A DNA stretch of 64,000 nt from Comamonas sp. (GTDB lineage Bacteria; Pseudomonadota; Gammaproteobacteria; Burkholderiales; Burkholderiaceae_C). The first letter of the stretch is position 1; each line of letters opens with the position of its first letter. The position numbers and the translations under genes are program-made. Location: assembly GCA_021166775.1 (NCBI GenBank), contig JAJPEQ010000011.1, positions 134,515 to 198,514 on the forward strand, given 5' to 3'. Below the pieces are notes generated by a model, which was not told where the DNA came from, did no database searches, and was given only the letters and a program-made list of their open reading frames with translations. Positions 36,687-56,022 of this stretch are shown here, piece after piece.

Positions 36687-37415
36687 TTACGGCCTCCTCG
36701 TCATGTGGCCGCTGAAATCAGCGCAAAGCGCGCGGCCCTTGACGTGAGCCACGTCTACCTCGCGCCAGCTATTGGCTTCGGCCCAAGCCTCGACGTTGGC
36801 GATGGCGTTGAGCACGTGGCGCATGCGCCCCTGGCTGTCGGCGTGGATCTGCGCCACCAGCGCGGGCGTGAGCGCCACCTCTGACTTGGCCTTGCATGTG
36901 GCCTGCACATCGGCCAGGTCCAGCGGATGCAGCTGCACGATGCGCGCCACGCGGCTGGCGATGTGCGCGTAGCGCTGCACGATGGCCGGGAAGTTCTCCA
37001 TGCCGATCAGGAACACCATGGTGCCCGTCACGTCCGAGATGTCGCGGATCGTCTCAAGCTTTGCCGCGCTCTTCATGTCGGCGAGGTAGTCGGCCTCGTC
37101 GAAGATCAGCGCTTGCATTGTTTGCGCCAGGTGCGCTGTGATGCGGTTTTCCACGTCGGCGGCGCTGCCGCGCACAGACAGCGCCAAGCCTGTGGCAATG
37201 TCATCGAGCATCGAGCGGCCCGACCACACGCGCTTGGCGCGGATGAAGACGTGGCCGTTCTCGCTTGCCCAGCGCTCGGTCAGTTCGCTCTTGCCGATGC
37301 CGTACTTACCCTGGATCAGCACCAGGCCGGCCTCGCGCGCGCCGCGGCGCTGCACCACCTTCTCTGCCTCCTTGAGCAGGCGGAAGTTCTGCGTTTGCAC
37401 GAATCCCTTTTTCAT
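36687..37415 (-). CDS. Transposition ATPase (MuB-like AAA)
   Basis: Walker A GKYGIGKS; Walker B LIFDEAD; follows the transposase. Confidence 0.9.
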   Translation of the reverse strand: MKKGFVQTQNFRLLKEAEKVVQRRGAREAGLVLIQGKYGIGKSELTERWASENGHVFIRAKRVWSGRSMLDDIATGLALSVRGSAADVENRITAHLAQTMQALIFDEADYLADMKSAAKLETIRDISDVTGTMVFLIGMENFPAIVQRYAHIASRVARIVQLHPLDLADVQATCKAKSEVALTPALVAQIHADSQGRMRHVLNAIANVEAWAEANSWREVDVAHVKGRALCADFSGHMTRRP

Positions 37416-37484: not shown

Positions 37485-39728
37485 TCACAGGGCACTCTTA
37501 AAACCGGGCTGTTCTTGTCCTGGCGAATCCCACGCCAGACCGCGCGCGCAGTAGTAGTCGCGCAGCCCCTCGTAGCCGTCGCTGGTCACGTAGCGGTGCA
37601 GCCAGTCGACGTCGTCGTTCTGCCAGTCATCGCGGTGGGCCATCAGCCACTCGTAGCGGTCGCTGGGGGTGTCGAAGAAAGGTCTGCCCGGGGCCGCACC
37701 CGCAGGCCCTGCGGTTTGCGCGTGCGCGGCCTCGCCCGTGGAGGAAGGAGGGAGGGAGGAGCGTTGCGCGGCCTCCTCGGTGCAGAGCGCGTCCACGAAG
37801 GGCGCGGGGCTCTGCGGCAGGGAAAGGGTGGTGGCGTCGCTCGCCAGCGTGGGGTTCAGCTCGCGCAGCGCCAGGTCGATCTGCTGCTCGCGCAGCTTGA
37901 TGCGTGCTGCGGCGCGCTTGGCCTTGGCCATTTCCACCACCGGCGTGGGGAAGAAGGCACGGCGGCTGGCGTCAAAGCGGGCCTCGCAGACATACTCACC
38001 GCCCAGCGTGTAGATCAACACGCTACTTGCGTCGTGGATGTCGTAGCGCACGCTGACCTCGCGCCCATCCACGTCGCGGCGCATCAGCTCGGGCGCGGCG
38101 TAGGTCTGGTTGAAGAAGGTGACCTGCCCGCGCTTGGCCGTGCGCAGCACCGCGGGCATGAACATCATGCGCAGCTCAAGCTGCGAGAGCATCACCTGTT
38201 CGCCCGGCACCAGCTTCGCGGCCCAGGCCTCGGCGGGCGTCATGTGCTTGCCGTCGGCCCGCTTGGGCAGGCTGCGGTGACGATGCTCGCGGTTGTATTC
38301 ATCGACCGCCTGCGCCACCGCGTCGATGAACTGCTGCCAGGTGGGCACCTTGCTGCTCAGAGTGACCACCTCGCCGGTCTGCTCGGCACGGCGCACCGCG
38401 CGCTGCTCCTTGGCCAGCTCGGCCGCCACCTTGCGGAAGGTGCCAGCGTCTACGTCGCGGCCCTGGTAGCTGCCGAAGCGCCGCGCCAAGTTGATGCCCA
38501 ACGTCTGGTGCACCCGCTCCACCATGCCGTGGCCTTGCGGCTTGCCCGGGATGCCGGTGCGGTGGTCAATGCCCAGCCGCGCGCAGAAGCCGTCGATGGG
38601 ACAGTCCATCTGCCTGGCCGTTTCGCCCGCGCCGTTGTCGCCGTAGAGGATGGCGGGCACACCGTACAGGCCAATGCCGTGGCGCAGCGCATCGCCCACC
38701 GCGCGCACGTTTTCCGACAGGTTGACCGACCAGCCAGTGACCACGCGCGTGGCGGCGTCGATGCAGACCGTGAGCTCTGGCGCGAAAGGCGCACCGTGGT
38801 CGGGGTGGCGCACCTTGGCCTTGAGCGTGTGGCCGTCGATCAGCCAGACGTCATTGGCATTGAGGCCGCTGGGGTCGCGGTGTTTAAACGGCAGCTTGGC
38901 ATCGCGTTGCGCGCTTGGCGCGTGGCGCGACTTGATCAGCGCGATGCTGGCCTCGTGGTTCTTGCCCAGCTTGTCCAGCGCGCGGCGGGCACGGGCGTAG
39001 AGCGCGCGCCAGGTGTCGAAGTCGCGCCCCAGCTCACGGGTGACTTCCTTGGCCGCACCCGAGAGCTTGCGAAAGCGTGCATCGCGGCTGTGAAACAGCC
39101 CCAGCACTGCGGCCACGTCCTGCTCGATGTCATGCAGGCTGGCTGTAGGCACAGGCGCGGGCAATAGGCCCCACCAGCCCTGGGCGCGGTAGATGCTGAG
39201 GTAGCGCTCCAGCGTGCGGCTGCTCACCTGGTCGGCACGGGCACGCTGGTTGGCGGCGCGCGCGGCGGCCTGCACTTCGGCGCCGGCCTGGCCGCTGGCG
39301 AGCTGCAGCGCCACGATGGCGCAGGCGCGCTTGACGCCGTGCAACGGCTCCAGCTCCAGCACCAGGTTGACCAGCTGCATGCGCGCATCGGCCGTGGCTT
39401 TGTCGTTGATCGATGGCGGGCGGCGTTCAGGTTGCGGCGCCAACGGCAGATCGGTGGGCGCCGGTTGCGGCGCGGGGGGTGCAAAGGCGACCACTGGCGC
39501 GGCATCCACCTGGGTCAGTGCAATGGCACGGGCCTGAACCACGATGCGTGCGGCGATTGCGGCGCGGGTTTCTTCGGGCAGCGCAGTGCTGTCGTATTCC
39601 AGGCCGCCGCCGCTGGCGCGCCGAGGACGGCTGGGAAAGCCCAGACGCTCCAGCTTTTCGCGAGTGCGACGTTCGGTAGTGGGCATGCCCGGCATGCCCG
39701 CCAGTTCGCGTGCGGTGAGCCAAGTCAT
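37485..39728 (-). CDS. Mu-type DDE transposase (MuA-like)
   Basis: N-terminal Mu HTH (WLTARELAGMPGMP); LIDGH, YGDNG and GMVER catalytic motifs; Mu transposase C-terminal domain. Confidence 0.96.
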   Translation of the reverse strand: MTWLTARELAGMPGMPTTERRTREKLERLGFPSRPRRASGGGLEYDSTALPEETRAAIAARIVVQARAIALTQVDAAPVVAFAPPAPQPAPTDLPLAPQPERRPPSINDKATADARMQLVNLVLELEPLHGVKRACAIVALQLASGQAGAEVQAAARAANQRARADQVSSRTLERYLSIYRAQGWWGLLPAPVPTASLHDIEQDVAAVLGLFHSRDARFRKLSGAAKEVTRELGRDFDTWRALYARARRALDKLGKNHEASIALIKSRHAPSAQRDAKLPFKHRDPSGLNANDVWLIDGHTLKAKVRHPDHGAPFAPELTVCIDAATRVVTGWSVNLSENVRAVGDALRHGIGLYGVPAILYGDNGAGETARQMDCPIDGFCARLGIDHRTGIPGKPQGHGMVERVHQTLGINLARRFGSYQGRDVDAGTFRKVAAELAKEQRAVRRAEQTGEVVTLSSKVPTWQQFIDAVAQAVDEYNREHRHRSLPKRADGKHMTPAEAWAAKLVPGEQVMLSQLELRMMFMPAVLRTAKRGQVTFFNQTYAAPELMRRDVDGREVSVRYDIHDASSVLIYTLGGEYVCEARFDASRRAFFPTPVVEMAKAKRAAARIKLREQQIDLALRELNPTLASDATTLSLPQSPAPFVDALCTEEAAQRSSLPPSSTGEAAHAQTAGPAGAAPGRPFFDTPSDRYEWLMAHRDDWQNDDVDWLHRYVTSDGYEGLRDYYCARGLAWDSPGQEQPGFKSAL

Positions 39729-40274: not shown

Positions 40275-40335
40275 GGTTCGGAATGAAACGTTTCAGCTTG
40301 AACCGTATTCTTGGGCCAAATTGAACCGGAGTCAA
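40275..40335. promoter_or_regulatory. Lysis/lysogeny switch: operator dyad and overlapping divergent promoters
   Basis: GGTTC-N4-TGAAACGTTTCA-N4-GAACC dyad; TTGAACCG twice; leftward TTGACT-17-AAGAAT and rightward ATGAAA-17-TATTCT. Confidence 0.65.
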
Positions 40336-40340
40336 TAGGT

Positions 40341-41021
40341 ATGCCGGAAAAAAATCCTCCCGCCGCGCTGGGCGTTGCGTCTGCAGAGCGCGTGATCGAT
40401 CGTTTGAGCGAGGTGTTGGGGCCGGATTGGATGGCCCGGATGGAGGTTCAACCCGAAACGGTCAGGACATGGCGCAAGCGAGGAGAGGTGCCGATTCGCC
40501 AGCTCTTGCGCGCGGCGCAGCTATCGGGACACCTGGTTGAGTACTTCAACGGCACGATGGAAACATCTGCGGTTGCTCAGAATCGGCCCTCGGCCGACGA
40601 AGACGAATTCACCCAGATCGAGATGCTGGACGCCCGCATCAGCGCTGGTCACGGCGCGGTGAACGGAAGTCACGAGGTCATCGGCAAGTTCGCGTTTCGC
40701 ACCTCATGGTTGAGAGAGCGTGGGCTGAACAAGCGCAACGCGAAGATCGTCCGCGTGCGCGGGCGATCAATGGCCGACAGGATTAACGACGGTGACATCC
40801 TGCTCGTGAACACTGCTGTCAACACGCTCACACAGGACGCCGTCTACGTCATCGACCTGGAGGGCGAGGACTATGTGAAGCTCTTGCAACGGGATTTCAC
40901 CACTGGCGGCGTCCGGATCGTGAGCTACAACCCGGCATTCCCGACGCAGGTTCTCGAGGGCGAAGCTGCTAACAGGCTTCGAATCGTCGGCCGAGTCGTT
41001 TGGCATGGAGGAGAGCTGTGA
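40341..41021 (+). CDS. Prophage repressor (HTH + S24 peptidase)
   Basis: ETVRTWRKRGEVP; VRGRSMADRINDGD; YVKLLQ. Confidence 0.92.
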   Translation: MPEKNPPAALGVASAERVIDRLSEVLGPDWMARMEVQPETVRTWRKRGEVPIRQLLRAAQLSGHLVEYFNGTMETSAVAQNRPSADEDEFTQIEMLDARISAGHGAVNGSHEVIGKFAFRTSWLRERGLNKRNAKIVRVRGRSMADRINDGDILLVNTAVNTLTQDAVYVIDLEGEDYVKLLQRDFTTGGVRIVSYNPAFPTQVLEGEAANRLRIVGRVVWHGGEL

Positions 41022-42134: not shown

Positions 42135-42182
42135 AGGCCGACCCACGTCGGCCTTAGTTTTTGATGCCCCGGCAATGACAGT
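42135..42182 (+). promoter_or_regulatory. Putative late promoter 1 (activator dyad + T-tract + weak -10)
   Basis: 28-bp exact match to 50240-50267, with conservation continuing to ACAGT. Confidence 0.75.
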
Positions 42183-42188
42183 TGCTGC

Positions 42189-42878
42189 ATGGGCATCACT
42201 GCATCTTTCCTCTTCGGCTGCGTCTGCGCGCTGGTGATCATCGCCATCGCCGAGTGGCCCGCGTTGCCGCGGGCGCGCGGCCCATGGCGCATGCGCGGCG
42301 GCGCGAGTCCGCGCCTGCTGGTGGCGGGCCTGTCGCTTTCGGCCGCAGGCTTCATCGGCCTGGTGGTGCACGAGGGCTATACCGGCCGCGCCGTCGTGCC
42401 CACGCAGGGCGACCGGTCCACTGTGGGCTTTGGCAGCACCTTCAACGAAGACGGCACGCCCGTGAAGCCTGGCGACACCACCACGCCGGTGCGCGCACTC
42501 ATCAAGGCGCAGGCGCATCTGAGTCGCGAAGAGGCGGTGTTTCGCACCAGCCTGCCTGGCGTGGCGCTGTCGCAGGGCGAATACGACCTGTACATGGACT
42601 GGCTCTATCAATACGGCTCGGGCGCCTGGTTCACTTCCGGCATGCGCCGCGAGTTACTCGCGGGCAATTACCGCGCGGCGTGCGATGCGCTGCTGGACTA
42701 CCGCAAGCTCACCAGCGGCCGAAAAGAGGGGCCGGGCTGGGTGGTCAACCGGCGCAACGCGCAGGGTCAGCCCACGCGGTGGGAATTCGACTGCTCCACA
42801 CCAGGCAACAAGGTGTGCCGGGGCGTTTGGACGCGTCAGCTCGAACGCCACAAGAAATGCATGGAGCTGCAGCAATGA
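42189..42878 (+). CDS. SAR-type endolysin (GH24 lysozyme) with an extra N-terminal hydrophobic segment
   Basis: HEG....PTQGDRSTVGFGST catalytic E/D/T pattern; alternative start at Met35 (42291). Confidence 0.9.
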   Translation: MGITASFLFGCVCALVIIAIAEWPALPRARGPWRMRGGASPRLLVAGLSLSAAGFIGLVVHEGYTGRAVVPTQGDRSTVGFGSTFNEDGTPVKPGDTTTPVRALIKAQAHLSREEAVFRTSLPGVALSQGEYDLYMDWLYQYGSGAWFTSGMRRELLAGNYRAACDALLDYRKLTSGRKEGPGWVVNRRNAQGQPTRWEFDCSTPGNKVCRGVWTRQLERHKKCMELQQ

Positions 42879-43597: not shown

Positions 43598-43884
43598 GCG
43601 AATCGAACAACGACGCCGGGCGCCAGCAAGAGCTGCTGCTGCTGGGCCAAATCCACGGCCTGGTGCAGTCCCTGAAAGACGGGCAGAACCAGCAAAACGT
43701 GCGCATGGACCGCATGGAGGCGCGCATGGAGGAGCACTACACCGGCCTGGACACGCGCCTGCGCGAGGTGGAGAAAAAGGCCGCTGTCGCGGGTGCCCTC
43801 TCGGGCGGCGCCGTGGCGGTGGGCACCGCGCTGGTGGTGGAAGGCATCAAGCAGTTCATCCGCGGCAATGGCTTGGGCAACTGA
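43594..43884 (+). CDS. Coiled-coil protein with C-terminal TM
   Basis: 96 aa; sits before the putative small terminase. Confidence 0.7.
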   Translation: MSESNNDAGRQQELLLLGQIHGLVQSLKDGQNQQNVRMDRMEARMEEHYTGLDTRLREVEKKAAVAGALSGGAVAVGTALVVEGIKQFIRGNGLGN

Positions 43885-44381
43885 TGGCGCACGCGCAAGA
43901 AAAACGCACCCAGCTGCGTGGCCTGTATGTACACCAGCGCCTGCCGATGGAGACGGCCTGCAAAAAGACAGGCGTGCCGCGCAGCACCGCCGACCGCTGG
44001 AAGCGCGAGGCCGCGGCCGAGGGTGACGACTGGGACACGGTGCGCGCCGCCGTGGCGCTGGGCGACGAGAACTTTTCCAGCCTGAGCAAAAAGCTGCTGG
44101 AAGACTACCTGGTGCAGCACCAGGCCACGATGGACCTGCTGCGCGACGACAGGAAGATGAGCCCGCGCGAGCGCGCCGAGACGCTGGCGAGCATGAGCGA
44201 CAGCTTCAACAAGACCATGGCGAGCTTCAAGCGCCTGGCGCCCGACCTGGACCGCCAGGCGGTGCAGCTCGATGTGATCCAGCGCTTTGTGAACTTCGCC
44301 CGCGCGCGCTTTCCGCAGCACCTGCAGGCCATGGCCGAGATGCTGGAGCCCTTCGGTGAAGAGCTGGCGCGGGGGCGATGA
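43884..44381 (+). CDS. DUF1804-family protein, probable small terminase
   Basis: N-terminal HTH (RWKREA..GDDWD); directly upstream of the terminase. Confidence 0.8.
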   Translation: MAHAQEKRTQLRGLYVHQRLPMETACKKTGVPRSTADRWKREAAAEGDDWDTVRAAVALGDENFSSLSKKLLEDYLVQHQATMDLLRDDRKMSPRERAETLASMSDSFNKTMASFKRLAPDLDRQAVQLDVIQRFVNFARARFPQHLQAMAEMLEPFGEELARGR

Positions 44382-44479: not shown

Positions 44480-46153
44480 ATGGCCAAGAACAGCAAGGAA
44501 TTCCTCGCCGGTCTGGCCGCGCTGGCGGGTGACCTGCGCCGCCAGATCGATGCCAACCTGGACGGCTGGGACGTGAGCCCCGAGGCGGTTGCCGAGCGCC
44601 GCCGCCTGGTGTGCGACCCGGTGACGGGCTACGAGGTGTGGGACCGCAACTACTTCCCGCACTACGGCCGGGCAGAGGCGAGCGAGCTGCACAAATACCT
44701 GTACAAGCGCCTGCCGGAGATCATCAACAGCCCCAGCGGCCAGCGCGACGCCATCGCCGCGCCGCGCGGCGAAGCCAAGAGCACCAAGATCAGCATGAGC
44801 TTCGTGCTGTGGTGCGTGGTGACCGGCGCCAAGTGGTACCCGGTGATCATCATGGACGCCTTCGAGCAGGCCGCCGAGATGCTCGAAGCCATCAAGGCCG
44901 AGCTGGAGGCCAACCCGCGCATCGCCGGTGACTTCCCCGAGGCAGCAGGCGCGGGCAAGGTCTGGCGCGCGGGCGTGATCGTCACGGCCAACGGCCGCAA
45001 GATCGAGGCCTTCGGCTCATCCAAGAAGATCCGCGGCCGCCGCCACGGTGCGCACCGGCCAGACTTGGCCATCTGCGACGACATCGAGAACGACGAGAAC
45101 GTCAACACGCCCGCGCAGCGCGACAAGCTGCAGGCCTTCGTCACGAAGAGCGTGCTCTCGCTCGGCCCGCCCGACGATTCGATGGACGCCATCCTGGTGG
45201 GCACGGTGCTGCACTACGACAGCGTGCTTGCGCGCTTCCTGAAGAACCCGCTGTGGAACCGCAAGGTGTTCAAGGCCGTCTTGAGCTGGCCTGACCGCAT
45301 GGATCTGTGGGAGCATTTCGAGGGCCTGCTGCTGGGGGGTGAGACACCCCAGCAGGGCGAGGCCGCCGCCATGGCGCTGTACCAGCAAAACCGCGCCGCC
45401 ATGGATGCGGGCGCGCGGGTGAGCTGGCCCGCGCTGCGCCCGCTGGTCAAGTTGATGATCCGCCGCGCGCGAGAGGGCCACGCCGCGTTTGACAGCGAGC
45501 AGCAAAACGACCCGGTGGCCGGCGACGACGCGCCGTTTGCCAACTCCATCCGCTTCTGGGTCAACCGCCTGGCCGAGTGGGTGTTCTACGGCGCCTGCGA
45601 CCCGAGCCTGGGCAAGGCCGGCAACAGCCGCGACCCCAGCGCTCTGGTGGTGGGCGGCTGGCAGCGCGAGACGGGCGTGCTCGACGTGGTCGAGGCGCAG
45701 ATCAAGAAGCGTGTGCCTGACCGCATCATCAGCGACGTGGTCGAGCTGCAGCGCGAGTACGCCTGCATCGTCTGGGGCTTCGAGTCCGTTCAATTTCAGG
45801 AGTTCTTGCGCACGGAGCTGGTCAAGCGCAGCGCCCAGCTCGGCGTGCCCGTGCCCGCCCGCGCGTTGATCCCGATCGCCGACAAGCTGCTGCGCATCGA
45901 GAGCCTGCAGCCGCACATGGCCAACGGCCTGCTGCGCCTGCACAGCAGCCAGAGCACGCTGATCGACCAGTTCCGCCACTTCCCCAAGGCCGACCACGAC
46001 GACGGGCCGGATGCCGTGCAGATGCTGTGGATGCTGTGCGTCACCGGCGGCGTGGCCGCTGCCGCCCAGGGCGGCAATGGCCCCCAGCAAAACCAGACCG
46101 CGCGCGAGCGCTACGCGCGCCAGGCGGCGCGCATGTTCAGGAGACAAAGATGA
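44480..46153 (+). CDS. Terminase large subunit
   Basis: APRGEAKST Walker A; RPDLAICDDIE; GACDPS; HDDGPD nuclease motif. Confidence 0.95.
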   Translation: MAKNSKEFLAGLAALAGDLRRQIDANLDGWDVSPEAVAERRRLVCDPVTGYEVWDRNYFPHYGRAEASELHKYLYKRLPEIINSPSGQRDAIAAPRGEAKSTKISMSFVLWCVVTGAKWYPVIIMDAFEQAAEMLEAIKAELEANPRIAGDFPEAAGAGKVWRAGVIVTANGRKIEAFGSSKKIRGRRHGAHRPDLAICDDIENDENVNTPAQRDKLQAFVTKSVLSLGPPDDSMDAILVGTVLHYDSVLARFLKNPLWNRKVFKAVLSWPDRMDLWEHFEGLLLGGETPQQGEAAAMALYQQNRAAMDAGARVSWPALRPLVKLMIRRAREGHAAFDSEQQNDPVAGDDAPFANSIRFWVNRLAEWVFYGACDPSLGKAGNSRDPSALVVGGWQRETGVLDVVEAQIKKRVPDRIISDVVELQREYACIVWGFESVQFQEFLRTELVKRSAQLGVPVPARALIPIADKLLRIESLQPHMANGLLRLHSSQSTLIDQFRHFPKADHDDGPDAVQMLWMLCVTGGVAAAAQGGNGPQQNQTARERYARQAARMFRRQR

Positions 46154-46329
46154 CCGATGAGCAAGCGACCCTGCTCGCGATCCGCCAGGTGATTGCCGAG
46201 CTGCCCGAGGATGACCGCGCGGGCGTGTGCCTGGCGGCGCTCAAGCTGCGCGAGGTGGTGGCGCTGCACAACGACCACGGCCGCCTGGCGCTGGCCCTGG
46301 TGGGCGCCGAGCACGCGGCCGAGGGTTGA
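46150..46329 (+). CDS. Hypothetical protein (59 aa)
   Basis: GGAG RBS, ATGA overlap. Confidence 0.6.
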   Translation: MTDEQATLLAIRQVIAELPEDDRAGVCLAALKLREVVALHNDHGRLALALVGAEHAAEG

Positions 46330-46332
46330 GCC

Positions 46333-47808
46333 ATGGGCATGATCAACCGCTTTAAAAAGTTCGCGGGTATCGACACCGGCGAAGACACCAGCGAAACCAT
46401 CCGGACCGTGCGCGAGGCTGCGGCCGCGCAAGGCGCGGGCGATGACGGCGGTAGCTGGCGGCGCCTCTCCGGCGATGGCCAGGGCAGCATGAATGACCGC
46501 GACCTGCAGCCCATGGCGCAAGAGCGCATGCAGAAGCTCGCCGAATACCTGTGGCAAAGCAACCTGCTGGCCAACCGCCTGGTGGAGCTGCCGCTGGCCT
46601 ACCTGCTGGCCGAGGGCGTGACGCTGCAATGCGCCGAAGACACCCACCAAAAGCTGCTCAACGCCTTCTGGGCCGATCCCATCAACAACTGGCCGATGAA
46701 GCTGGAAGGCCGCGTGCGCGCCCTGGGCCTGATGGGCGAACAGTGCTACGTGGCCAGCGTGCGCGAGGGCGATGGCTTCGTGCGCCTGGGCTACCTGGAC
46801 CCGCGCCAGATCGCCACCGTGGTCAACGACCCCTACAACCCCGAGCAGCCCATTGGCGTGGTCACCAAGCGCGACAGCCGGGGGCGCCAGTACAAGTACC
46901 GAGTGATCGTGTTGGGTGAGGAGTCGGAGCTCTTCAGCGCGGGCACGGTGCGCATCCGCGCCGAAGATTTCACTGATGGTGAAGTGCTGCTGTTCCAGCT
47001 CAACAAGTTTCCCAATGGCAGCCGCGGCCGCAGCGACCTGCTGGGGCAGATGGACTGGCTGGATGCCTACGACGGCTTTCTGTTCGCGGAGCTTGACCGC
47101 ATCGACTACCTGCGCCGTTTCGTGTGGGACGTGACTTTGAGCGGCGCGGACGATGAGGCGGTGAAGAAGTACCAAAAAGAGTTCGTCGCGCCGGCCCCCA
47201 ACAGCGTATGGGTGCACAACGAAAGTGTGACGCTGGCGCCCAAGACGCCAGGGCTGGATGCTGCTGACACCAGCCAGAGCGCCCGGTTGTTGCGCAACCA
47301 CGTTCTGGGCGGCGCCACCGTGCCCGAGCACTGGTTTGGCGGCGGCGGCGACGTGAACCGCGCGGCGGCCAGCGAGATGGGCGAGCCTACGTTCAAGATG
47401 TACAGCATGCGCCAGGGCTACTTGAAGCGCATGCTCGAAGAGATCGGCCGCTACGTGCTGCTGTGCCACGCCCGTACAACGGGCGTGGTGCCCGACTGGG
47501 CCGATGACGCCTGGCAGGTAACTGCCGTCTTCCCCGAGCTGCTCAACCGCGACATCACCAAATTCGCCAGCGCCATGCAGACGGTGACCAGCGCGGTGAC
47601 CCAGCTGATTGCCGCCGGATTGATGACCGAAGAGACCGCGCTCAAGACCGTGGCCGACGTGGCGCAGCGCTTTGGCCAGGACTTCGACGCCAAGACCGAG
47701 CTGGCGGCGGCCCGCACCGAGCACGCGGCGCGCCAGGCCGAGAAAGACGCCCGCGACGTGTTCCGCCTGCCCCCGAACAACGCGCCGCCCGAACCCGAGC
47801 CCGCCTGA
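46333..47808 (+). CDS. Portal protein
   Basis: 491 aa after the terminase; RGRSDL, VPEHWFG motifs. Confidence 0.85.
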   Translation: MGMINRFKKFAGIDTGEDTSETIRTVREAAAAQGAGDDGGSWRRLSGDGQGSMNDRDLQPMAQERMQKLAEYLWQSNLLANRLVELPLAYLLAEGVTLQCAEDTHQKLLNAFWADPINNWPMKLEGRVRALGLMGEQCYVASVREGDGFVRLGYLDPRQIATVVNDPYNPEQPIGVVTKRDSRGRQYKYRVIVLGEESELFSAGTVRIRAEDFTDGEVLLFQLNKFPNGSRGRSDLLGQMDWLDAYDGFLFAELDRIDYLRRFVWDVTLSGADDEAVKKYQKEFVAPAPNSVWVHNESVTLAPKTPGLDAADTSQSARLLRNHVLGGATVPEHWFGGGGDVNRAAASEMGEPTFKMYSMRQGYLKRMLEEIGRYVLLCHARTTGVVPDWADDAWQVTAVFPELLNRDITKFASAMQTVTSAVTQLIAAGLMTEETALKTVADVAQRFGQDFDAKTELAAARTEHAARQAEKDARDVFRLPPNNAPPEPEPA

Positions 47809-47814
47809 CGCGCC

Positions 47815-48750
47815 ATGGCGGACGCCTTGCAAAATCCCGACAAGGCCTTCGAGGCCGAACTGGCGCGCCACCTGCGCGAGCGCGCCCGCACGCTGCTGGC
47901 CGGGCAGACCGAGGTGCTGCAACTCTTGCAGGCCGCACGCACGCAGATCCTCGCCCAGCTCGCCGGCCTGCCGCCCGACTGGCAGCAGTGGCAGCTCTCG
48001 CGCCTGCTCGGGCAGATCGAGGACGTGCTGGCGGGTGCCACCAGCCAGGCTGGCTCGCTGTTCGCGCGGCGCATGGACGGCGCCTGGCACGCGGGAGAGG
48101 ATTTTGTCGATCAGCCCCTGGCCACCATCGGCCACCGCGTGGATCTGCGCCTGGCGCAGCTCGATGTGGGCGTCTTGAAGCAGATGCAGACCTTTGCCAG
48201 CCTGCGCCTGAAAAACGTGGGCCGCGAGGCGGCGGGGAGAATCGGCCAGCAGCTGGGCCTGGCCACGCTGGGCGGCATCACGCCGCACGAGGCCATCAAG
48301 GCCGTGCAAACCATCCTTGGCGGGCAGGCCGCGCAGCGCGCCGGCATGATCGTGCACACCGAAATGAGCCGCGCCTTCGACCTGGCGGCCAATGGACGCG
48401 TGCAGCAGGCCGCTGCGCTGGTGCCGGGCCTCTCCAAGCAATGGCGGCGCAGCGGCAAGATTCACAGCCGCTGGAACCACGACATCATCGACGGCCAGGT
48501 GGTGGATGCCAACAAGCCCTTCAAGGTGCCCAACCCGGGCGGTGGCTTTGACCTGATGCAATGCCCGCACGACCCCAAGGCGCCGGTGGAGCAGGTGATC
48601 CACTGCGGCTGCGTCAGCCTGCCGTGGATGAAGCAGTGGAAGGTGATGACGCCCGGCGCCAAGCCCTTCACTGAACGCGAGCTCGAGCTCGATGGCCGCA
48701 AGGCCGCGCTGGACCAAGCGGCCAAGCGCGCGGGGGCGCGAAAGGAATGA
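47815..48750 (+). CDS. Head morphogenesis protein (Mu gpF / SPP1 gp7-like)
   Basis: IVHTEMSRA, KQWRRSG, HDIIDGQ, IHCGC. Confidence 0.88.
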   Translation: MADALQNPDKAFEAELARHLRERARTLLAGQTEVLQLLQAARTQILAQLAGLPPDWQQWQLSRLLGQIEDVLAGATSQAGSLFARRMDGAWHAGEDFVDQPLATIGHRVDLRLAQLDVGVLKQMQTFASLRLKNVGREAAGRIGQQLGLATLGGITPHEAIKAVQTILGGQAAQRAGMIVHTEMSRAFDLAANGRVQQAAALVPGLSKQWRRSGKIHSRWNHDIIDGQVVDANKPFKVPNPGGGFDLMQCPHDPKAPVEQVIHCGCVSLPWMKQWKVMTPGAKPFTERELELDGRKAALDQAAKRAGARKE

Positions 48751-48908
48751 GGCGCTGGTGCGATTGCCGGGCCACGGTGCGGCCTACCCCATGGCCAGCC
48801 CGAGAAAACCGCACCATCGGCGATTTAAAAGGGGTTTAAACGTATTGGCGTTATAGACGTCTGACTCAGAGTGGCCCCGGATGTCCCGGTTCTATATGAA
48901 TTGATGGC

Positions 48909-49700
48909 TCAGAAAAGGCCTCTTTGGCGCGCAACTTCTGCAGGAGCTACGCCGGAACGCAGGAGACCGATGATGATGAATTGCCTCGGATGGGCCTTCA
49001 TGGTTCCCATCACGAAATGCAGGTTTCGCTCGGGTATTCGTTGCTGGTACTGTTCGCGCAGTGCATCCATTCCACCATCGCCATAGTCTCGCTTGAACCT
49101 ATGAAATGCTGACTGTACTTCCCAATCATGAATTTTCATGTTATGGGAACGCCCGTCACAGGTGAACTGATAGCTGAACTCGTACTCGACGGTGATAGGG
49201 TTGAGGACCGATGGGTCCAACAGCGAAAATTGCCGAAAAGTGCTCCTCAGCGTAGCGTCTTCCGCAGAATCCTTTGAGAGCTTCCGCGCCTTAAAGCGCA
49301 AAGAGTCTTCATCTGGCTTCACGATACCGAGGCTCCTCTCCGTGCTCAAGTTCTCCTGCTTGAGGGCTTCAATGGAAGGGGAGACGTGAGGAAGCCAAGC
49401 CCGCACCTTTTGCTCTTCGTTGAGCTGATTAGCAAACTGGACTACCGTGATGGAGTCTTCGTTGACATGTCTGCTCTCAGGGCGATGATCGCCTACAGGT
49501 CGATGAGCAAAATATTCGAGAACATCCCACCGGTTGAATTGCTTGTCTATGGGGAGATGACGGAACCGAATCGGATAGAGGCGAACAAATTTTCCCTCCG
49601 GGGTGACTCCCGCGCAGCAGACCGTTTCATCGTATTTTTGGCTAGGCTGCGGGAACGCCTTCACAAGTACGAGCGCCCGCTCTTTGTCTCCCTGCACCAT
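48909..49700 (-). CDS. Uncharacterised 263-aa partner of DUF488 (cassette gene 2)
   Basis: VKAFPQPSQKYDETVCCAGV...VRLYPIRFR N-terminus; IHDWE; FVMGT..HP..FIIIGL; GGAG RBS inside the upstream gene; low GC. Confidence 0.85.
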   Translation of the reverse strand: MVQGDKERALVLVKAFPQPSQKYDETVCCAGVTPEGKFVRLYPIRFRHLPIDKQFNRWDVLEYFAHRPVGDHRPESRHVNEDSITVVQFANQLNEEQKVRAWLPHVSPSIEALKQENLSTERSLGIVKPDEDSLRFKARKLSKDSAEDATLRSTFRQFSLLDPSVLNPITVEYEFSYQFTCDGRSHNMKIHDWEVQSAFHRFKRDYGDGGMDALREQYQQRIPERNLHFVMGTMKAHPRQFIIIGLLRSGVAPAEVARQRGLF

Positions 49701-50136
49701 CTCTAACTCCCAGATGCTTCACTTTGAGCCCCGTGAGATTTTCAAGCTGACGTGCTACCACGCTGCGGTGACATGTGGCAGGATCACGTTCGTAGCATAC
49801 CAAGGCAACGGTGCCCTCCAGATCCGAGGCCAGCTTTTCCAGGAGAGGCTTTTGGGATTTTAGATATTCTTTAAAAGATTTGAAATAAGTTGCGTAATCG
49901 CCATCGACGTGGAGTTGGTGACGAATATTCTTTGGTGAACCCAAGTCTCTTTCGTGCCGGTAATTGATGCCTACGGCCTCTGCATGTTGCGCAAGTGCTT
50001 TCTTGGAAAAACCTTTGCGCCTCGAGATGGGGATTTCGCGTACGTCGAGCAACAGCGTCACGTTGGCGTGCGCAAGCGTCGCGATGAAGTCCTCGATAGA
50101 TGAGCCTTCGTATCCTATGGTCATGAGCTGCTGCAT
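49642..50136 (-). CDS. DUF488-family protein (cassette gene 1)
   Basis: TIGYEG, LLDVREIPISRRKGFSK, LGSP and LVCYERDPATCHR motifs; GAGG RBS; low GC. Confidence 0.88.
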   Translation of the reverse strand: MQQLMTIGYEGSSIEDFIATLAHANVTLLLDVREIPISRRKGFSKKALAQHAEAVGINYRHERDLGSPKNIRHQLHVDGDYATYFKSFKEYLKSQKPLLEKLASDLEGTVALVCYERDPATCHRSVVARQLENLTGLKVKHLGVRDGAGRQRAGARTCEGVPAA

Positions 50137-50239
50137 CGATTTTCCTCTTCACTGCGCAAATGAGAATCATAGCCATGCCCCCTAACCTTGTTGCATCGTG
50201 TGGTGATGTGTTAGCCTGAAAAGTCGTTCACCGCAGCTG

Positions 50240-50287
50240 AGGCCGACCCACGTCGGCCTTAGTTTTTTGTGCTCCCGCAAGCACAGT
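50240..50287 (+). promoter_or_regulatory. Putative late promoter 2
   Basis: Second copy of the 28-bp dyad plus the conserved downstream 20 bp ending ACAGT. Confidence 0.75.
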
Positions 50288-50341
50288 CACTCCGTCACAA
50301 CTGCCGCACTTCTCGCGGCGTTCTCAACGATGGAGTGATCG

Positions 50342-50602
50342 ATGCCCGACGACAAGACCAAGACCCCGCCCGAGGCCAACAGCAAGGCCAGGGAGCTGAC
50401 GACCGCCGACGCCGCCAAGCGCGTGAAGCGCACCGTCACCGAATGGGTGGACGGCGAAGACAAGGCGGGCAAGCCAGTCAAAACGGCGCGCACCCGCGAG
50501 GTGGCGGTGCAGGCCGCCGACGTGCTGTCGTTCCGCGACTACGGCACGCACGTCGTGGTGGTCACCACGGACGGCCAGAAGCTCTCCAGTCTGGGCGAGT
50601 AA
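50342..50602 (+). CDS. Small late protein (86 aa)
   Basis: GGAG RBS; first gene after late promoter 2. Confidence 0.75.
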   Translation: MPDDKTKTPPEANSKARELTTADAAKRVKRTVTEWVDGEDKAGKPVKTARTREVAVQAADVLSFRDYGTHVVVVTTDGQKLSSLGE

Positions 50603-50608
50603 GCGGCC

Positions 50609-52972
50609 ATGATCAAGCTCATCCCCGTCGGCACCGGCTTCGCGCGCCTGACCGAGGCGGTGACCACCGAGTACGGCCAGCTCTTGGACCTGGTGAGCCA
50701 GGCCATCCGCGAGAAGCTGCGTCTGGCGGCCAATGGCGGCGACTTCTACGCGAACGTGCGCGGCATCTGGCCCGATCGCGTGGTGGTGCAGTTCAAAGGG
50801 CGCCTCTACAGCTACGCCTACACCGTGGCGGCGGACAACACCGTCGCCCTGGGCGACGCCACCGAGGTGGTGCAGGACTTTGCGCCTGTGGACGCTGCCA
50901 CGCCGCCCGCCGCAGGAACCACGGGCGCCGTTCGCGAAGCCATCCAGCCGCACGGTGACGTCCGCTTCACGGAGGCGGCCGATGGCTCGATCGAAGTCAC
51001 CATCGTCAAGGCCGGGCGCAGCGGCAACCGCAACTACTACTCCGACGCCGCGCTGCGCGAGGCCGCCCCCATCTTCGAGGGCGTGCGCGTGTTCGCGAAG
51101 TCAGATACCGATCACACGACCGGCAAGGGCAAGGATGTGCGCAACCTGATCGGCGGCATCTATGGCGTGCGGTTCGTCGAGGGCAAGACGCCCGACAGCG
51201 GCGTGCTCGTGGGCACGTTCAAAGCCATCGACCCTTCGGACGCCGTGGTCACCAAGATGACTGAGGCCGTCAAGCGCGGCATGCAAGACCTGCTGGGTCT
51301 GTCCATTGACGCCATTGCACGCACCAAGCCACGCATGGTGGGCCGAGTGCGCCTCACCGAGGCGTCGAAGTTCCTCAAGGTGAACTCCGTTGATTTGATT
51401 GTCGAGCCGGGCGCTGGCGGCGGCCTGGATCGTCTCACCGAAGCCGCCGCCGATCCATACATCACCAACACCCCGAAGGAAGAAGCCATGCCCCTGTGGA
51501 AGCAACGCATGCTGGAGGCCATCCAGGCCAAAGACCCGGCGAAGCACGCCGCGATCGACGTCGACACTGTCACCGACGACGCGGTCACTCAACTGTATGA
51601 GGCCGTGTGCGGCCCGCTGGTGCCGGCCGAGCCTGGCACGCGACGCGTGGCCGAGGCGCAGGGTCAAGGCGATGACACCCCGCTCACTCGCGCCGACCTG
51701 CAGATGTTCGAGCAGCGCGCCGCCGCGCGCGAGCGCATTGGCGCGGCCAAGCTGCCGCAGGCCTCGCGCGACCGACTGCTCGCGCAGATCGCCACGGCCG
51801 GGGCTGAGCGCCTCACCGAAGCGGCCGTGGGCGACCTCATCAAGACCGAGGGCGACTACGTGGCCCGTTTGACCGAAAGCGGCACCGTGCGCGTGCCCAT
51901 GTTCGGCGAGGGCTCAATCACCGTGGGCGACCGCAGCCTGACCATGCGCGACATGCTGGATGCCTTCTGGGACCCGGCGCACAAGGACCACGGCCGCGTG
52001 CAGTCCTTCAAGGAGTGCTACGTCGAGATGACGGGCGACCGCCTGGTGACGGGCCGCCTGCGCGAGTGCGACCAGTCGCGCCTGGTGGAATCGCTGGGCA
52101 GCGCCTCGCTGGGCGAGGTGCTGGGCGACAGCGTCACGCGCCGCATGCTTGCCGAATACCGCGCTGCGGTGGACTTCGACGGCTGGCGCCAACTGGTCAA
52201 CGTGGTGCCCGTGAACGACTTCCGCATGCAGCACCGCACCCGCTGGGGCGGCTATGGCGATCTGCCGGACGTGGCCGAGGGCGCCGACTATCTGCCGCTG
52301 ACCAGCCCCGGCGATGAAGAAGCCACCTACAAGGCGGGCAAGAAGGGCGGCACGGAAGACATAACGCTGGAGATGATCAAGAACGACGACGTGGGCACGA
52401 TCCGCCGCATTCCCACCAAGCTCTCGCGCGCCGCCAAGCGCACCCTGGCCAAGTTCGTGTTCGACTTCCTGCGTGCCAATCCGGTGATCTACGACACCAA
52501 GGCGCTGTTTCACGTTGATCACGCCAATCTGTTTGCCGCCGCGCTCTCGAAGACGGAGCTGGCCGTGCACCGTTTGGCAATGCTCAAGCAGACCGAGCTG
52601 AGCAGCAACGACCGCATCGGCATCACGCCCACGCGCCTCGTCGTTCCCGTGGAGCTGCAAGAGACGGCCGTTGATCTGTTCAAGCTGTCCACCAACAACG
52701 AAAAGACGTTCATCCAGTCCCTGACGATGAACATCATCCCCGTGTGGTACTGGACCGATGCCAACGACTGGTGCACCGCCGCAGACCCGGCCGACATTCC
52801 CGGCATCGAGATGGGCTTCCTGGACGGCCGCGAGGAGCCCGAGCTGTTCGTGCAGGACACGCCCAACGTGGGCTCCATGTTCGCGGCCGACAAGCTGACC
52901 TACAAGATTCGCCACATCTACGGCGGCGCGGTCACCGACTACCGCGCCTTTACCAAGGCCGTGGTGGCCTGA
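50609..52972 (+). CDS. Prohead protease-scaffold-major capsid (gpT-like) fusion
   Basis: Protease-like NYYS..L..A..FEG, GLSID and SVDLIVEPGAGG; capsid-like VNDFR, DLPDVAEG, ITLEMIKNDD, YKIRH. Confidence 0.88.
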   Translation: MIKLIPVGTGFARLTEAVTTEYGQLLDLVSQAIREKLRLAANGGDFYANVRGIWPDRVVVQFKGRLYSYAYTVAADNTVALGDATEVVQDFAPVDAATPPAAGTTGAVREAIQPHGDVRFTEAADGSIEVTIVKAGRSGNRNYYSDAALREAAPIFEGVRVFAKSDTDHTTGKGKDVRNLIGGIYGVRFVEGKTPDSGVLVGTFKAIDPSDAVVTKMTEAVKRGMQDLLGLSIDAIARTKPRMVGRVRLTEASKFLKVNSVDLIVEPGAGGGLDRLTEAAADPYITNTPKEEAMPLWKQRMLEAIQAKDPAKHAAIDVDTVTDDAVTQLYEAVCGPLVPAEPGTRRVAEAQGQGDDTPLTRADLQMFEQRAAARERIGAAKLPQASRDRLLAQIATAGAERLTEAAVGDLIKTEGDYVARLTESGTVRVPMFGEGSITVGDRSLTMRDMLDAFWDPAHKDHGRVQSFKECYVEMTGDRLVTGRLRECDQSRLVESLGSASLGEVLGDSVTRRMLAEYRAAVDFDGWRQLVNVVPVNDFRMQHRTRWGGYGDLPDVAEGADYLPLTSPGDEEATYKAGKKGGTEDITLEMIKNDDVGTIRRIPTKLSRAAKRTLAKFVFDFLRANPVIYDTKALFHVDHANLFAAALSKTELAVHRLAMLKQTELSSNDRIGITPTRLVVPVELQETAVDLFKLSTNNEKTFIQSLTMNIIPVWYWTDANDWCTAADPADIPGIEMGFLDGREEPELFVQDTPNVGSMFAADKLTYKIRHIYGGAVTDYRAFTKAVVA

Positions 52973-53030
52973 CGGAACTCCGAAGCCCGCGTAGGGCAAG
53001 TGAAGTGGCTGGCATTCCATAACTGCCCGG

Positions 53031-55089: not shown

Positions 55090-56022
55090 ATGTCCGATCC
55101 GATTTTTGTCAACCAGACCGTCATCCTTGCCAAGGTTGAAACCACCAAGGGCACCGATGCCGCGCCCACGGGGGCGGCGAACGCCATCCTTGTGAGCGAT
55201 GTCACCTTCACGCCGCTGGAAGGCGACGAAGTGGAGCGCAACAACATCCGCCCGTACTTCGGCGATGGTGGCAGCACGATGGTGACGCAGTACGCCAAGC
55301 TGTCGTTTTCCGTTGAGGCGGCGGGCGTGGAAGCGGCTGGCGACGTGCCTGGGTACGAGCCGCTGCTGCGCGCCGCGGCCACCAGCGTGACGGTCGCAGC
55401 GGGTGTGGACGTGCGGTTCGCCCCGGTCACCGAAGGGTTGGAGAGTGTGACCATCTACATCGCCGTGGGCCGCAACCTGCAAAAGATGACGGCGGCCATG
55501 GCGAACGTGAAGCTCGCGGGCGACGCCAAGACGATCGCCAAGTTCCAGTTCGAGTTCACCGGCACCTATCAGGCGGCCACCGACGCCGCGCTGCCGGCGG
55601 TGACCTACACCGCGTTCCAGGACCCGTTCGGTGTGAACAAGGTCAACAGCACGCTGTCGCTGCATGGCACGGCCGTGGCGGCCAGCGCCTTCAGCTTCGA
55701 CTTTGGCAACACCGTCATCAAGCGCGACCTGATCAACGTGGACACGGTGGAGATCACCGGCCGCAAGAGCACTGGCAGCGTCACGTTCGACAACACCTTG
55801 GTGACCGACAAGAACTGGGTGGAGCTGGCGCGCCAGGGCACGCGCGGCGCGCTGGCGTTCAAGCATGGGCCGGGGGCCACCAACGTGATCGAGCTCACCG
55901 CGCCCAACGTGCAGCTGGGCAAGCCCACGTTTGGCGAGTCGGACGGCGTGCAGCAGATCACCGTGCCGCTGCGCTATGTGCCGATCGACGGTAACGACGA
56001 GTGGGAGCTGATCGTCCGCTGA
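55090..56022 (+). CDS. Major tail (tube) protein, non-contractile
   Basis: 310 aa, AAGGAG RBS; no sheath gene between neck and chaperone. Confidence 0.8.
   Translation: MSDPIFVNQTVILAKVETTKGTDAAPTGAANAILVSDVTFTPLEGDEVERNNIRPYFGDGGSTMVTQYAKLSFSVEAAGVEAAGDVPGYEPLLRAAATSVTVAAGVDVRFAPVTEGLESVTIYIAVGRNLQKMTAAMANVKLAGDAKTIAKFQFEFTGTYQAATDAALPAVTYTAFQDPFGVNKVNSTLSLHGTAVAASAFSFDFGNTVIKRDLINVDTVEITGRKSTGSVTFDNTLVTDKNWVELARQGTRGALAFKHGPGATNVIELTAPNVQLGKPTFGESDGVQQITVPLRYVPIDGNDEWELIVR

Follow-up and report, generated by a model that had tools for sequence, protein, structure and literature searches.

The two-gene cassette described here lies inside a Mu-like transposable prophage of BcepMu layout, in a 64,000-nucleotide stretch of Comamonas sp. 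DNA (contig JAJPEQ010000011.1, positions 134,515 to 198,514 of the forward strand), which is called the window in its whole length. The cassette encodes a DUF488 protein (gene 1) and a divergent dual-OB, or DuOB, protein (gene 2). Its identity is firm: it is PDC-M19, the DUF488-DuOB pair, an already catalogued candidate system and not a new class. We give even chances to the view that it is a prophage-borne anti-phage module of the DUF488-DuOB family, independent of the late genes, and we lean slightly towards a defence role for the pair as such. An earlier note on this DNA had read the cassette as a candidate new phage-conflict system, expressed in lysogens, at an accessory hotspot of a Mu-like phage. 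That interpretation is partly supported: the identity of the genes and the slot are upheld and a conflict role is the best reading, whereas novelty, the type of phage and expression in lysogens are not supported as worded.

The cassette and the spacer beside it are laid out as follows.

49642..50136, minus strand: gene 1, DUF488 (PDC-M19A type), an intact open reading frame (ORF) of 164 amino acids (aa)
48909..49700, minus strand: gene 2, divergent dual-OB protein (DuOB; PDC-M19B type), an intact ORF of 263 aa
49642..49700, minus strand: dual-coding overlap of gene 1 and gene 2, 59 nt
50137..50237, minus strand: cassette-specific upstream region with the Shine-Dalgarno (SD) sequence AAGAGGA and a TATGAT -10-like hexamer (50166-50171)
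48753..48908, no strand: spacer between the gene 2 stop and the stop of the neighbouring Mu-F-like gene, forming the left edge of a variable slot

The structural description given in the earlier note was borne out. Both minus-strand ORFs and their 59-nt overlap are present, and each gene has its own ribosome-binding site: AAGAGGA (50143-50149) stands 6 nt 5' of the gene 1 ATG, and GGGAG (49707-49711), within gene 1, stands 6 nt 5' of the gene 2 ATG. GC content in 300-nt steps is 0.477-0.567 over 48800-50300 and 0.65-0.73 on either flank, in line with the low GC that had been judged by eye. All of the reported peptide motifs are found, namely CYERDPATCHR at residues 114-124 of gene 1 and CCAG (28-31), VRLYP (39-43) and IHDWE (190-194) in gene 2.

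Within the overlap, the DUF488 tail (...EGVPAA-stop) and the invariant VKAFPQPS of the partner are read from the same bases. The DUF488 stop codon falls within the invariant PQPS codons of the partner gene, so that the C-termini of 25 out of 30 DUF488 homologues fall in a single alignment column. The genes overlap in nearly all proteobacterial loci of the pair. The closest copy of the prophage, in an Ottowia sp. metagenome-assembled genome (MAG; locus L002), carries the cassette at the same place, and its overlap region differs from that of the window by a single synonymous change.

Gene 1 matches the PDC-M19A models PDLC04505 (5e-40) and PDLC04504 (5.8e-26) of PADLOC-DB v2.0.0, and gene 2 matches the PDC-M19B model PDLC04508 (4.1e-43, residues 6-247 on model positions 3-258 of 269). 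The adjacency of A and B genes that PDC-M19 calls for is present in the window, with both genes on the same strand and overlapping by 59 nt. Distant versions of the pair from Gordonia phages, an actinobacterial MAG and a fused ORF match the same PDC-M19 models. The notion of a new system fell with these matches; the PADLOC check that had been proposed did return a listed system, but one that is itself unvalidated. Burroughs and Aravind reportedly predicted both the DUF488-DuOB linkage and DNA-end processing in virus-host conflict by computation in 2023. Compared with those conflict systems, the cassette has the same "active N3" DUF488 beside a dual-OB protein, and the family has the same link to DNA-modification and restriction genes. 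It differs in that the partner in the window falls below the DuOB threshold and in that the prophage carries the two genes alone, with neither a methylase nor a nuclease.

Gene 1 scores far above the Pfam gathering threshold for DUF488 (PF04343; 2.1e-28, 99.8 bits against 22.2) and also above that for DUF488-N3a, the "active DUF488-N3" subclade (PF22751; 30.6 bits against 27), which confirms its assignment to DUF488. To our knowledge, no biochemistry has been assigned to this very large family. Residues invariant in 30 DUF488 homologues include E10, D31, R33, E34, S38, R39, K45, H61 and R72, together with C114, E116, D118, C122, H123, R124 and H141. The DUF488 of the window thus retains the motif of the "active" form, C114-x7-C122-H123-R124. 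In its AlphaFold2 (AF2) model, which has a predicted local distance difference test score (pLDDT) of 86.9, C114 closes the strand 109-114 and C122-H123-R124 stands just before the helix 125-135. This layout is consistent with that of a Cys-phosphatase P-loop with a longer loop, and placement in the rhodanese/Cys-phosphatase superfamily, as the earlier note had it, is consistent with the model. Enzymes of the Cys-phosphatase superfamily that act on polynucleotide ends include the RNA 5'-triphosphatases of the metazoan capping enzyme and of baculovirus BVP. With these, DUF488 would share a strand ending in an invariant Cys, a loop, and a Cys-His-Arg that starts a helix; its loop is C-x7-CHR and not C-x5-R.

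Gene 2 is a relative of the dual-OB proteins, as its family matches, its structural model and its fold matches all support. The protein matches phrog_25907 (1.5e-35) but not Pfam DuOB (PF22557), even at E-values up to 10. Close relatives score 26.3 and 25.9 bits on DuOB, where the gathering threshold is 27, and 6 of 33 members of the gene 2 family match DuOB at E-values up to 0.01, with no other Pfam family matched. On these profile scores, gene 2 is best placed in a divergent DuOB subfamily that lies under the Pfam threshold. Its AF2 model (pLDDT 87.4, predicted template-modelling score 0.86) consists of two OB-like beta units linked by helices. Foldseek searches of the PDB and BFVD return RPA, CST, TEBP-alpha, HIN-200 proteins (AIM2/IFI16/p202) and baculovirus LEF-3 at probabilities of 0.93-1.0, and all of the best matches are tandem-OB DNA binders. 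Gene 2 resembles these proteins in having two OB-like units joined by helices, while its template-modelling (TM) scores to them are just 0.22-0.46 and its sequence identity is 5-14%. Fourteen residues are invariant (C28, R40, R47, D71, R73, E75, S76, H186, D192, W193, E194, H228, H237 and R248), and the invariant HDWE and H..GTM..H sets are atypical of passive OB binders. Clustered at 50% identity, the family has about 2,400 representatives, and almost all of these are stand-alone proteins of about 260 aa. Searches of PDB sequences with both proteins and both family profiles gave nothing meaningful, and NCBIfam holds no family for either cassette protein.

Neither gene is a chance ORF, because the hidden Markov model E-values are 2e-28, 5e-40 and 4e-43 and the ratios of nonsynonymous to synonymous substitution rates (dN/dS) against the Ottowia prophage copy are 0.11 for DUF488 and 0.07 for DuOB. 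Both genes are therefore under purifying selection. The Ottowia proteins are 90% and 95% identical to those of the window.

When 185,579 species were scanned, each represented by one genome, 67 loci were found, mainly in Beta- and Gammaproteobacteria. In 38 of the 39 genome loci with a full-length partner, the gene just upstream of the partner, on its strand, is a DUF488, almost always with an overlap. A convergent arrangement is found in Gordonia phages (Nymphadora gp43/gp42), an actinobacterial MAG, Rhizobium pRL8 and a Pseudomonas plasmid, and because it occurs, the linkage is independent of operon structure. Across loci, a higher bit score of one gene tends to go with a higher score of the other (rho 0.56). 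DUF488 and DuOB are obligately linked. A single 409-aa ORF that fuses DUF488 and DuOB occurs in a Thioploca MAG (L040, 1777-3006) and as a 50%-cluster representative (P0243). It is either a true fusion or the product of an assembly error of 1 nt where the genes overlap. Together with the length and conservation of the overlap, this fusion had raised the idea of a programmed +1 frameshift, which was set aside, as a single fused example may be an assembly indel.

Several single loci of the family are recorded beside this distribution. In one Methylibium MAG, the partner is cut short to its first 34 residues on a contig that also has a type IIG gene and DUF488 (L020), and another contig has a full-length partner without DUF488 (L078), a split due either to rearrangement or to misassembly. 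The archaeal conjugative plasmid pSOG2 of Sulfolobus islandicus (L099, 3498-4858) carries a DuOB homologue beside an integrase; the overlapping downstream 168-aa gene was considered as a DUF488 and rejected (hhalign probability 0.8%). In the Gordonia phage Nymphadora (L001, 4027-6274), gene 42, annotated "HipA toxin", is the DUF488 (PDC-M19A 5e-29), and gene 43, annotated "hypothetical", encodes its DuOB partner; immediately before the pair stands the annotated immunity repressor gp44. The repressor was itself considered as a fusion of a helix-turn-helix (HTH) domain with DUF488, and this was rejected, gp44 having no DUF488 similarity.

The position of the cassette in the prophage is defined by its flanks.

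47815-48750, plus strand: Mu-F-like head-morphogenesis gene, the left flank (Phage_Mu_F 1.3e-4; phrog_2468 6e-20)
50240..50290, plus strand: repeated late-operon element AGGCCGACCCACGTCGGCCTTAGTTTTT, the right boundary of the slot (7-bp dyad plus T-run)
50342-50602, plus strand: 86-aa gene, the right flank, conserved in sibling phages
50609-52972, plus strand: 787-aa protease-capsid fusion, conserved in sibling phages (Phage_capsid_4 2.5e-46; phrog_29592 8.5e-212)

The slot between these flanks was compared across 19 sibling phage contigs that have the portal, Mu-F, 86-aa and capsid genes in common. Sibling DNA homology to the window ends at about 48752 (48752-48775) and restarts at about 50238, and the space between holds 0.55-3.7 kb of low-GC DNA with different cargo. 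At least five sibling contigs carry PDC-M18A and PDC-M18B (E-values down to 5e-118), a 340-aa protein and a 172-aa membrane protein, as at 7058-8603 of L088 and likewise in L090, L091, L094 and L095. PDC-M18 also occupies the P4 satellite hotspot of E. coli (PMC11754643). Other cargo consists of a capH/capP-like pair of an HTH protein and an HExxH metalloprotease (L096, 7239-8115), of four ORFs without a PADLOC match (L093, 6827-10095), and of a conserved ORF family of about 100 aa that occurs in five sibling contigs (e.g., L083, 7044-7346) and has no member in the window. The slot is a true hotspot of this phage lineage, as the earlier note had supposed. The left-hand spacer, 48753..48908, is weakly conserved even against the Ottowia copy.

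The right boundary is marked by the 28-nt sequence AGGCCGACCCACGTCGGCCTTAGTTTTT, which occurs exactly twice in the window (42135-42162 and 50240-50267; 0 expected). Both copies contain a perfect 7-bp dyad plus a T-run, and they precede the lysis genes (lysozyme) and the head genes, respectively; the conserved tract around them reaches about 42185 and about 50290. The element is found in all sibling phages in 2-3 copies each and is scored as terminator-like by a terminator scan. Judged by its placement, it may be a late-activator site or a terminator-promoter junction, and the second late promoter proposed to the right of the cassette gains support from it. The repeated element before the lysis and head genes therefore sets the cassette at the junction of two late transcription units.

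The upstream region of the cassette is 91% identical between the window and the Ottowia copy, above the 84% of the coding region, and it is missing from sibling phages that lack the cassette. Over a 1.85-kb region around the cassette, the two prophages agree at 84% of positions. The minus-strand TATGAT at 50171-50166 is kept in the Ottowia copy, and a cassette promoter at this hexamer is plausible. In these features the cassette resembles prophage defence morons at hotspots, which are likewise low-GC, swappable cargo at an operon boundary with their own expression signals. Defence cargo of this kind occupies the P2 and P4 hotspots (old/tin/fun; Rousset et al. 2022, PMC9122126), and lambda rexAB beside cI offers a further comparison. 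The cassette proteins are unrelated in sequence to the Rex, Old, Tin and Acr/Aca proteins.

The genomic contexts of the pair elsewhere were sampled at 44 loci. Five Burkholderiales loci and two contig-end fragments have a type IIG restriction-modification (R-M)/DrmMI-like gene of 1,250-1,440 aa, with the pair 11-40 nt downstream on the same strand. At one locus, type I HsdR/HsdS and an SLFN/AlbA_2 ATPase are encoded near the pair, and the pair is also found on conjugative plasmids. At least eight Gammaproteobacteria loci share a layout in which integrase and primase genes on the minus strand lie beside a capH-like HTH gene, DUF488 and DuOB on the plus strand. The defence-island signal in this sample is real but not overwhelming, and a role in conflict or defence, as the earlier note had proposed, is the best reading of these contexts.

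The integrase-primase loci are L021 (2225-8074), L022, L026, L027, L029, L032, L037 and L053. Their element encodes a DnaG/Toprim primase of about 1,050 aa, often has large RHS genes downstream, looks like a small integrative element and may be satellite-like. The upstream HTH genes were considered as the missing N-terminal half of PDC-M19A and rejected, as they matched only capH/RmrA-type HTH models.

The same contexts bear on a lysogenic-conversion or DNA-repair module, in which an end-processing enzyme and a DNA-binding cofactor would mend damaged termini (e.g., blocked 3' ends), serve the fitness of the host or element and target no phage. DUF488 belongs to a clade for which processing of nucleic-acid ends has been predicted, the tandem-OB fold does resemble the repair and replication factors RPA and CST, and many of the neighbours are ordinary metabolic genes. 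A repair function fits poorly with the sporadic distribution of the pair (67 loci among the genomes of 185,579 species), with a GC content below that of the host, with repeated carriage on phages, plasmids and integrative elements and in operons with type IIG R-M genes, and with the presence of other defence candidates in the same phage slot. We regard it as unlikely.

Phage-borne copies raise the question of counter-defence or self-protection, whereby the pair would shield or repair phage DNA ends (e.g., against RecBCD or restriction) or mask them from host sensors. In the Neptunomonas Mu-like prophage (L047/L070), the pair lies between the G-like and I-protease genes and is co-directional with the late genes; in another Mu-like prophage (L007) it follows the G-like gene, and in Piscinibacter (L016) it is near head genes. 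OB proteins can coat DNA, and the equivalent region of Pseudomonas Mu-like phages carries anti-CRISPRs. In the window, however, the cassette runs opposite to the late operon and is preceded by an upstream region of its own, and chromosomal operons with type IIG R-M genes are an unlikely home for an anti-restriction gene. In Gordonia phages DuOB is the next gene after the immunity repressor, and for Nymphadora this is a position expressed in lysogeny. In an Acr-Aca locus, small acr genes point the same way as the late operon and an Aca HTH gene comes after them. The likeness of the cassette to such loci in Pseudomonas Mu-like phages is positional only: it runs antisense to the late genes, the slot has neither an HTH ORF nor an Aca-like regulator, and its proteins, 164 and 263 aa long, have enzyme and OB folds. 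Counter-defence is accordingly judged quite unlikely.

The compact, translationally overlapping two-gene operon on plasmids, prophages and integrative elements would also suit a toxin-antitoxin (TA) or addiction module that stabilises a mobile element, with one protein toxic and the other neutralising it. The annotator of the Gordonia phage labelled the DUF488 gene "HipA toxin", a label without sequence support. No TA family was matched in Pfam, in NCBIfam or in PADLOC, the last of which gave nothing beyond PDC-M19 and PDC-M45. The convergent layout in many lineages is unusual for TA operons, and the fused single ORF is hard to square with a labile antitoxin. Of the readings weighed here, the TA module is the least probable; a TA-like abortive-infection mode would itself count as defence. 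The three alternatives are less consistent with the data than the anti-phage reading because of the operons with type IIG R-M genes, the position after the immunity repressor and the swapping of the cassette with other defence candidates.

The cassette is a self-contained, horizontally mobile "moron", set after the Mu-F-like gene and ahead of the second late transcription unit. As an anti-phage module, it would most likely be driven by its own promoter, apart from the late genes, and shield the lysogen from other phages. The dual-OB protein may bind invading or replicating phage DNA at single-stranded regions or free ends, and, once bound, may direct or activate its DUF488 partner. The DUF488 protein, predicted to be Rossmann-like with a Cys-loop-CysHisArg motif, could then carry out cysteine-dependent phosphoryl transfer or processing at nucleic-acid termini, which would leave the treated DNA unfit for ligation, replication or packaging. 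Where the pair stands next to type IIG enzymes, it would act on the ends made by restriction. This mechanism is far more tentative than the defence role: complex formation by the two proteins, their substrate and their chemistry are doubtful points. Equally speculative is a stand-alone anti-phage system with new effector chemistry, in which a tandem-OB sensor of free or single-stranded phage DNA licenses a Cys-dependent DUF488 to alter DNA or RNA termini. On that reading, Mu-like prophages, whose own injected ends are protein-protected, could exclude competitors, and type IIG restriction enzymes could use the pair to render their cuts irreparable.

Several observations weigh against the anti-phage reading. 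PDCs are phage defence candidates predicted by "guilt by embedding", and a literature search found no report that mentions PDC-M19 or shows its anti-phage activity. Other PDCs have been experimentally tested with mixed success. Across the 44 sampled loci, the majority of neighbouring genes cannot be recognised as defence genes, and many are ordinary. The DUF488 of the window covers positions 149-293 of the 294-position PDC-M19A model, leaving the N-terminal half unmatched. Foldseek matches of the DUF488 model to the PDB are weak (E-values 3.6e-3 to 5e-2, TM-scores up to 0.43) and mixed, comprising diphthine-synthase-type methylases, SRP GTPases and PTP-fold phosphatases (4kyr, 7mpc, 2dxp and 3gxh); the proposed phosphatase-like chemistry draws on the position of the motif and on background knowledge. 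Given how many His, Asp, Glu and Cys residues are invariant in gene 2, its product may have a catalytic or metal-binding role of its own instead of serving as a passive sensor. A sigma-70 consensus scan called no cassette promoter and found no acceptable -35, so that the conserved hexamer of the earlier note stands and the promoter is a plausible candidate.

Expression of the cassette is hinted at by unstranded contigs that possibly contain DNA, and this too counts on the cautious side. In four RNA-type metagenomic runs, 5 of the 12 near-identical full-length contig pieces in a 16-kb stretch of the prophage fall on the 1.2-kb cassette, which makes up 8% of that stretch. The pieces lie at 48918-49307 (run X14), 49494-49746 (X25), 49922-50071 and 50109-50340 (X26) and 50030-50180 (X27), and for X25 the cassette piece is the sole real piece in the 16 kb. 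To the description of the cassette as "lysogen-expressed", these unstranded metatranscriptome contigs lend weak support.

In a separate observation on the catalogue models, the N-terminal 90-165 positions of PDLC04505, PDLC04504 and phrog_14939 are matched by none of the DUF488 proteins examined.

The locus is a clean natural test case, being a 1.5-kb two-gene unit with its own upstream region in a defined slot. Anti-phage activity would validate PDC-M19 and provide a first function for both DUF488 and DuOB; it would also mark the F-to-I junction of BcepMu-like phages as a place to seek more defence genes. Without an anti-phage effect, the cassette would be an ordinary accessory cassette.

The window derives from a sediment metagenome, and the prophage within it has the following further genes.

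36687-37415, minus strand: MuB-like ATPase (AAA_22/TniB)
37485-39728, minus strand: MuA transposase (Mu-transpos_C, HTH_Tnp_Mu_1, rve)
40311-41021, plus strand: S24 repressor
42189-42878: lysozyme
43884-44381: DUF1804 (Pfam E-value 1e-54)
44480-46153: large terminase, assigned by gene order and phage-library matches of its neighbours, with no Pfam match
46333-47808: portal, assigned by gene order and phage-library matches of its neighbours, with no Pfam match
55090-56022: tail tube

MuA, the MuB-like ATPase, DUF1804, Mu-F and a Mu-type capsid, the features of BcepMu-type membership, are all present. A near-identity search with 46300-53000 found no match among 50,697 phage records. The comparison of the host element with D3112/JBD-type Pseudomonas phages was not sustained: it is a BcepMu-like prophage, in Burkholderiales, with its nearest copy in the Ottowia MAG. 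Besides Phage_Mu_F and Phage_capsid_4, Mu-like_gpT is matched among the prophage proteins. The ORF at 50609-52972 combines an N-terminal part resembling a head-maturation protease/scaffold with a Phage_capsid_4 major capsid domain in one protein.

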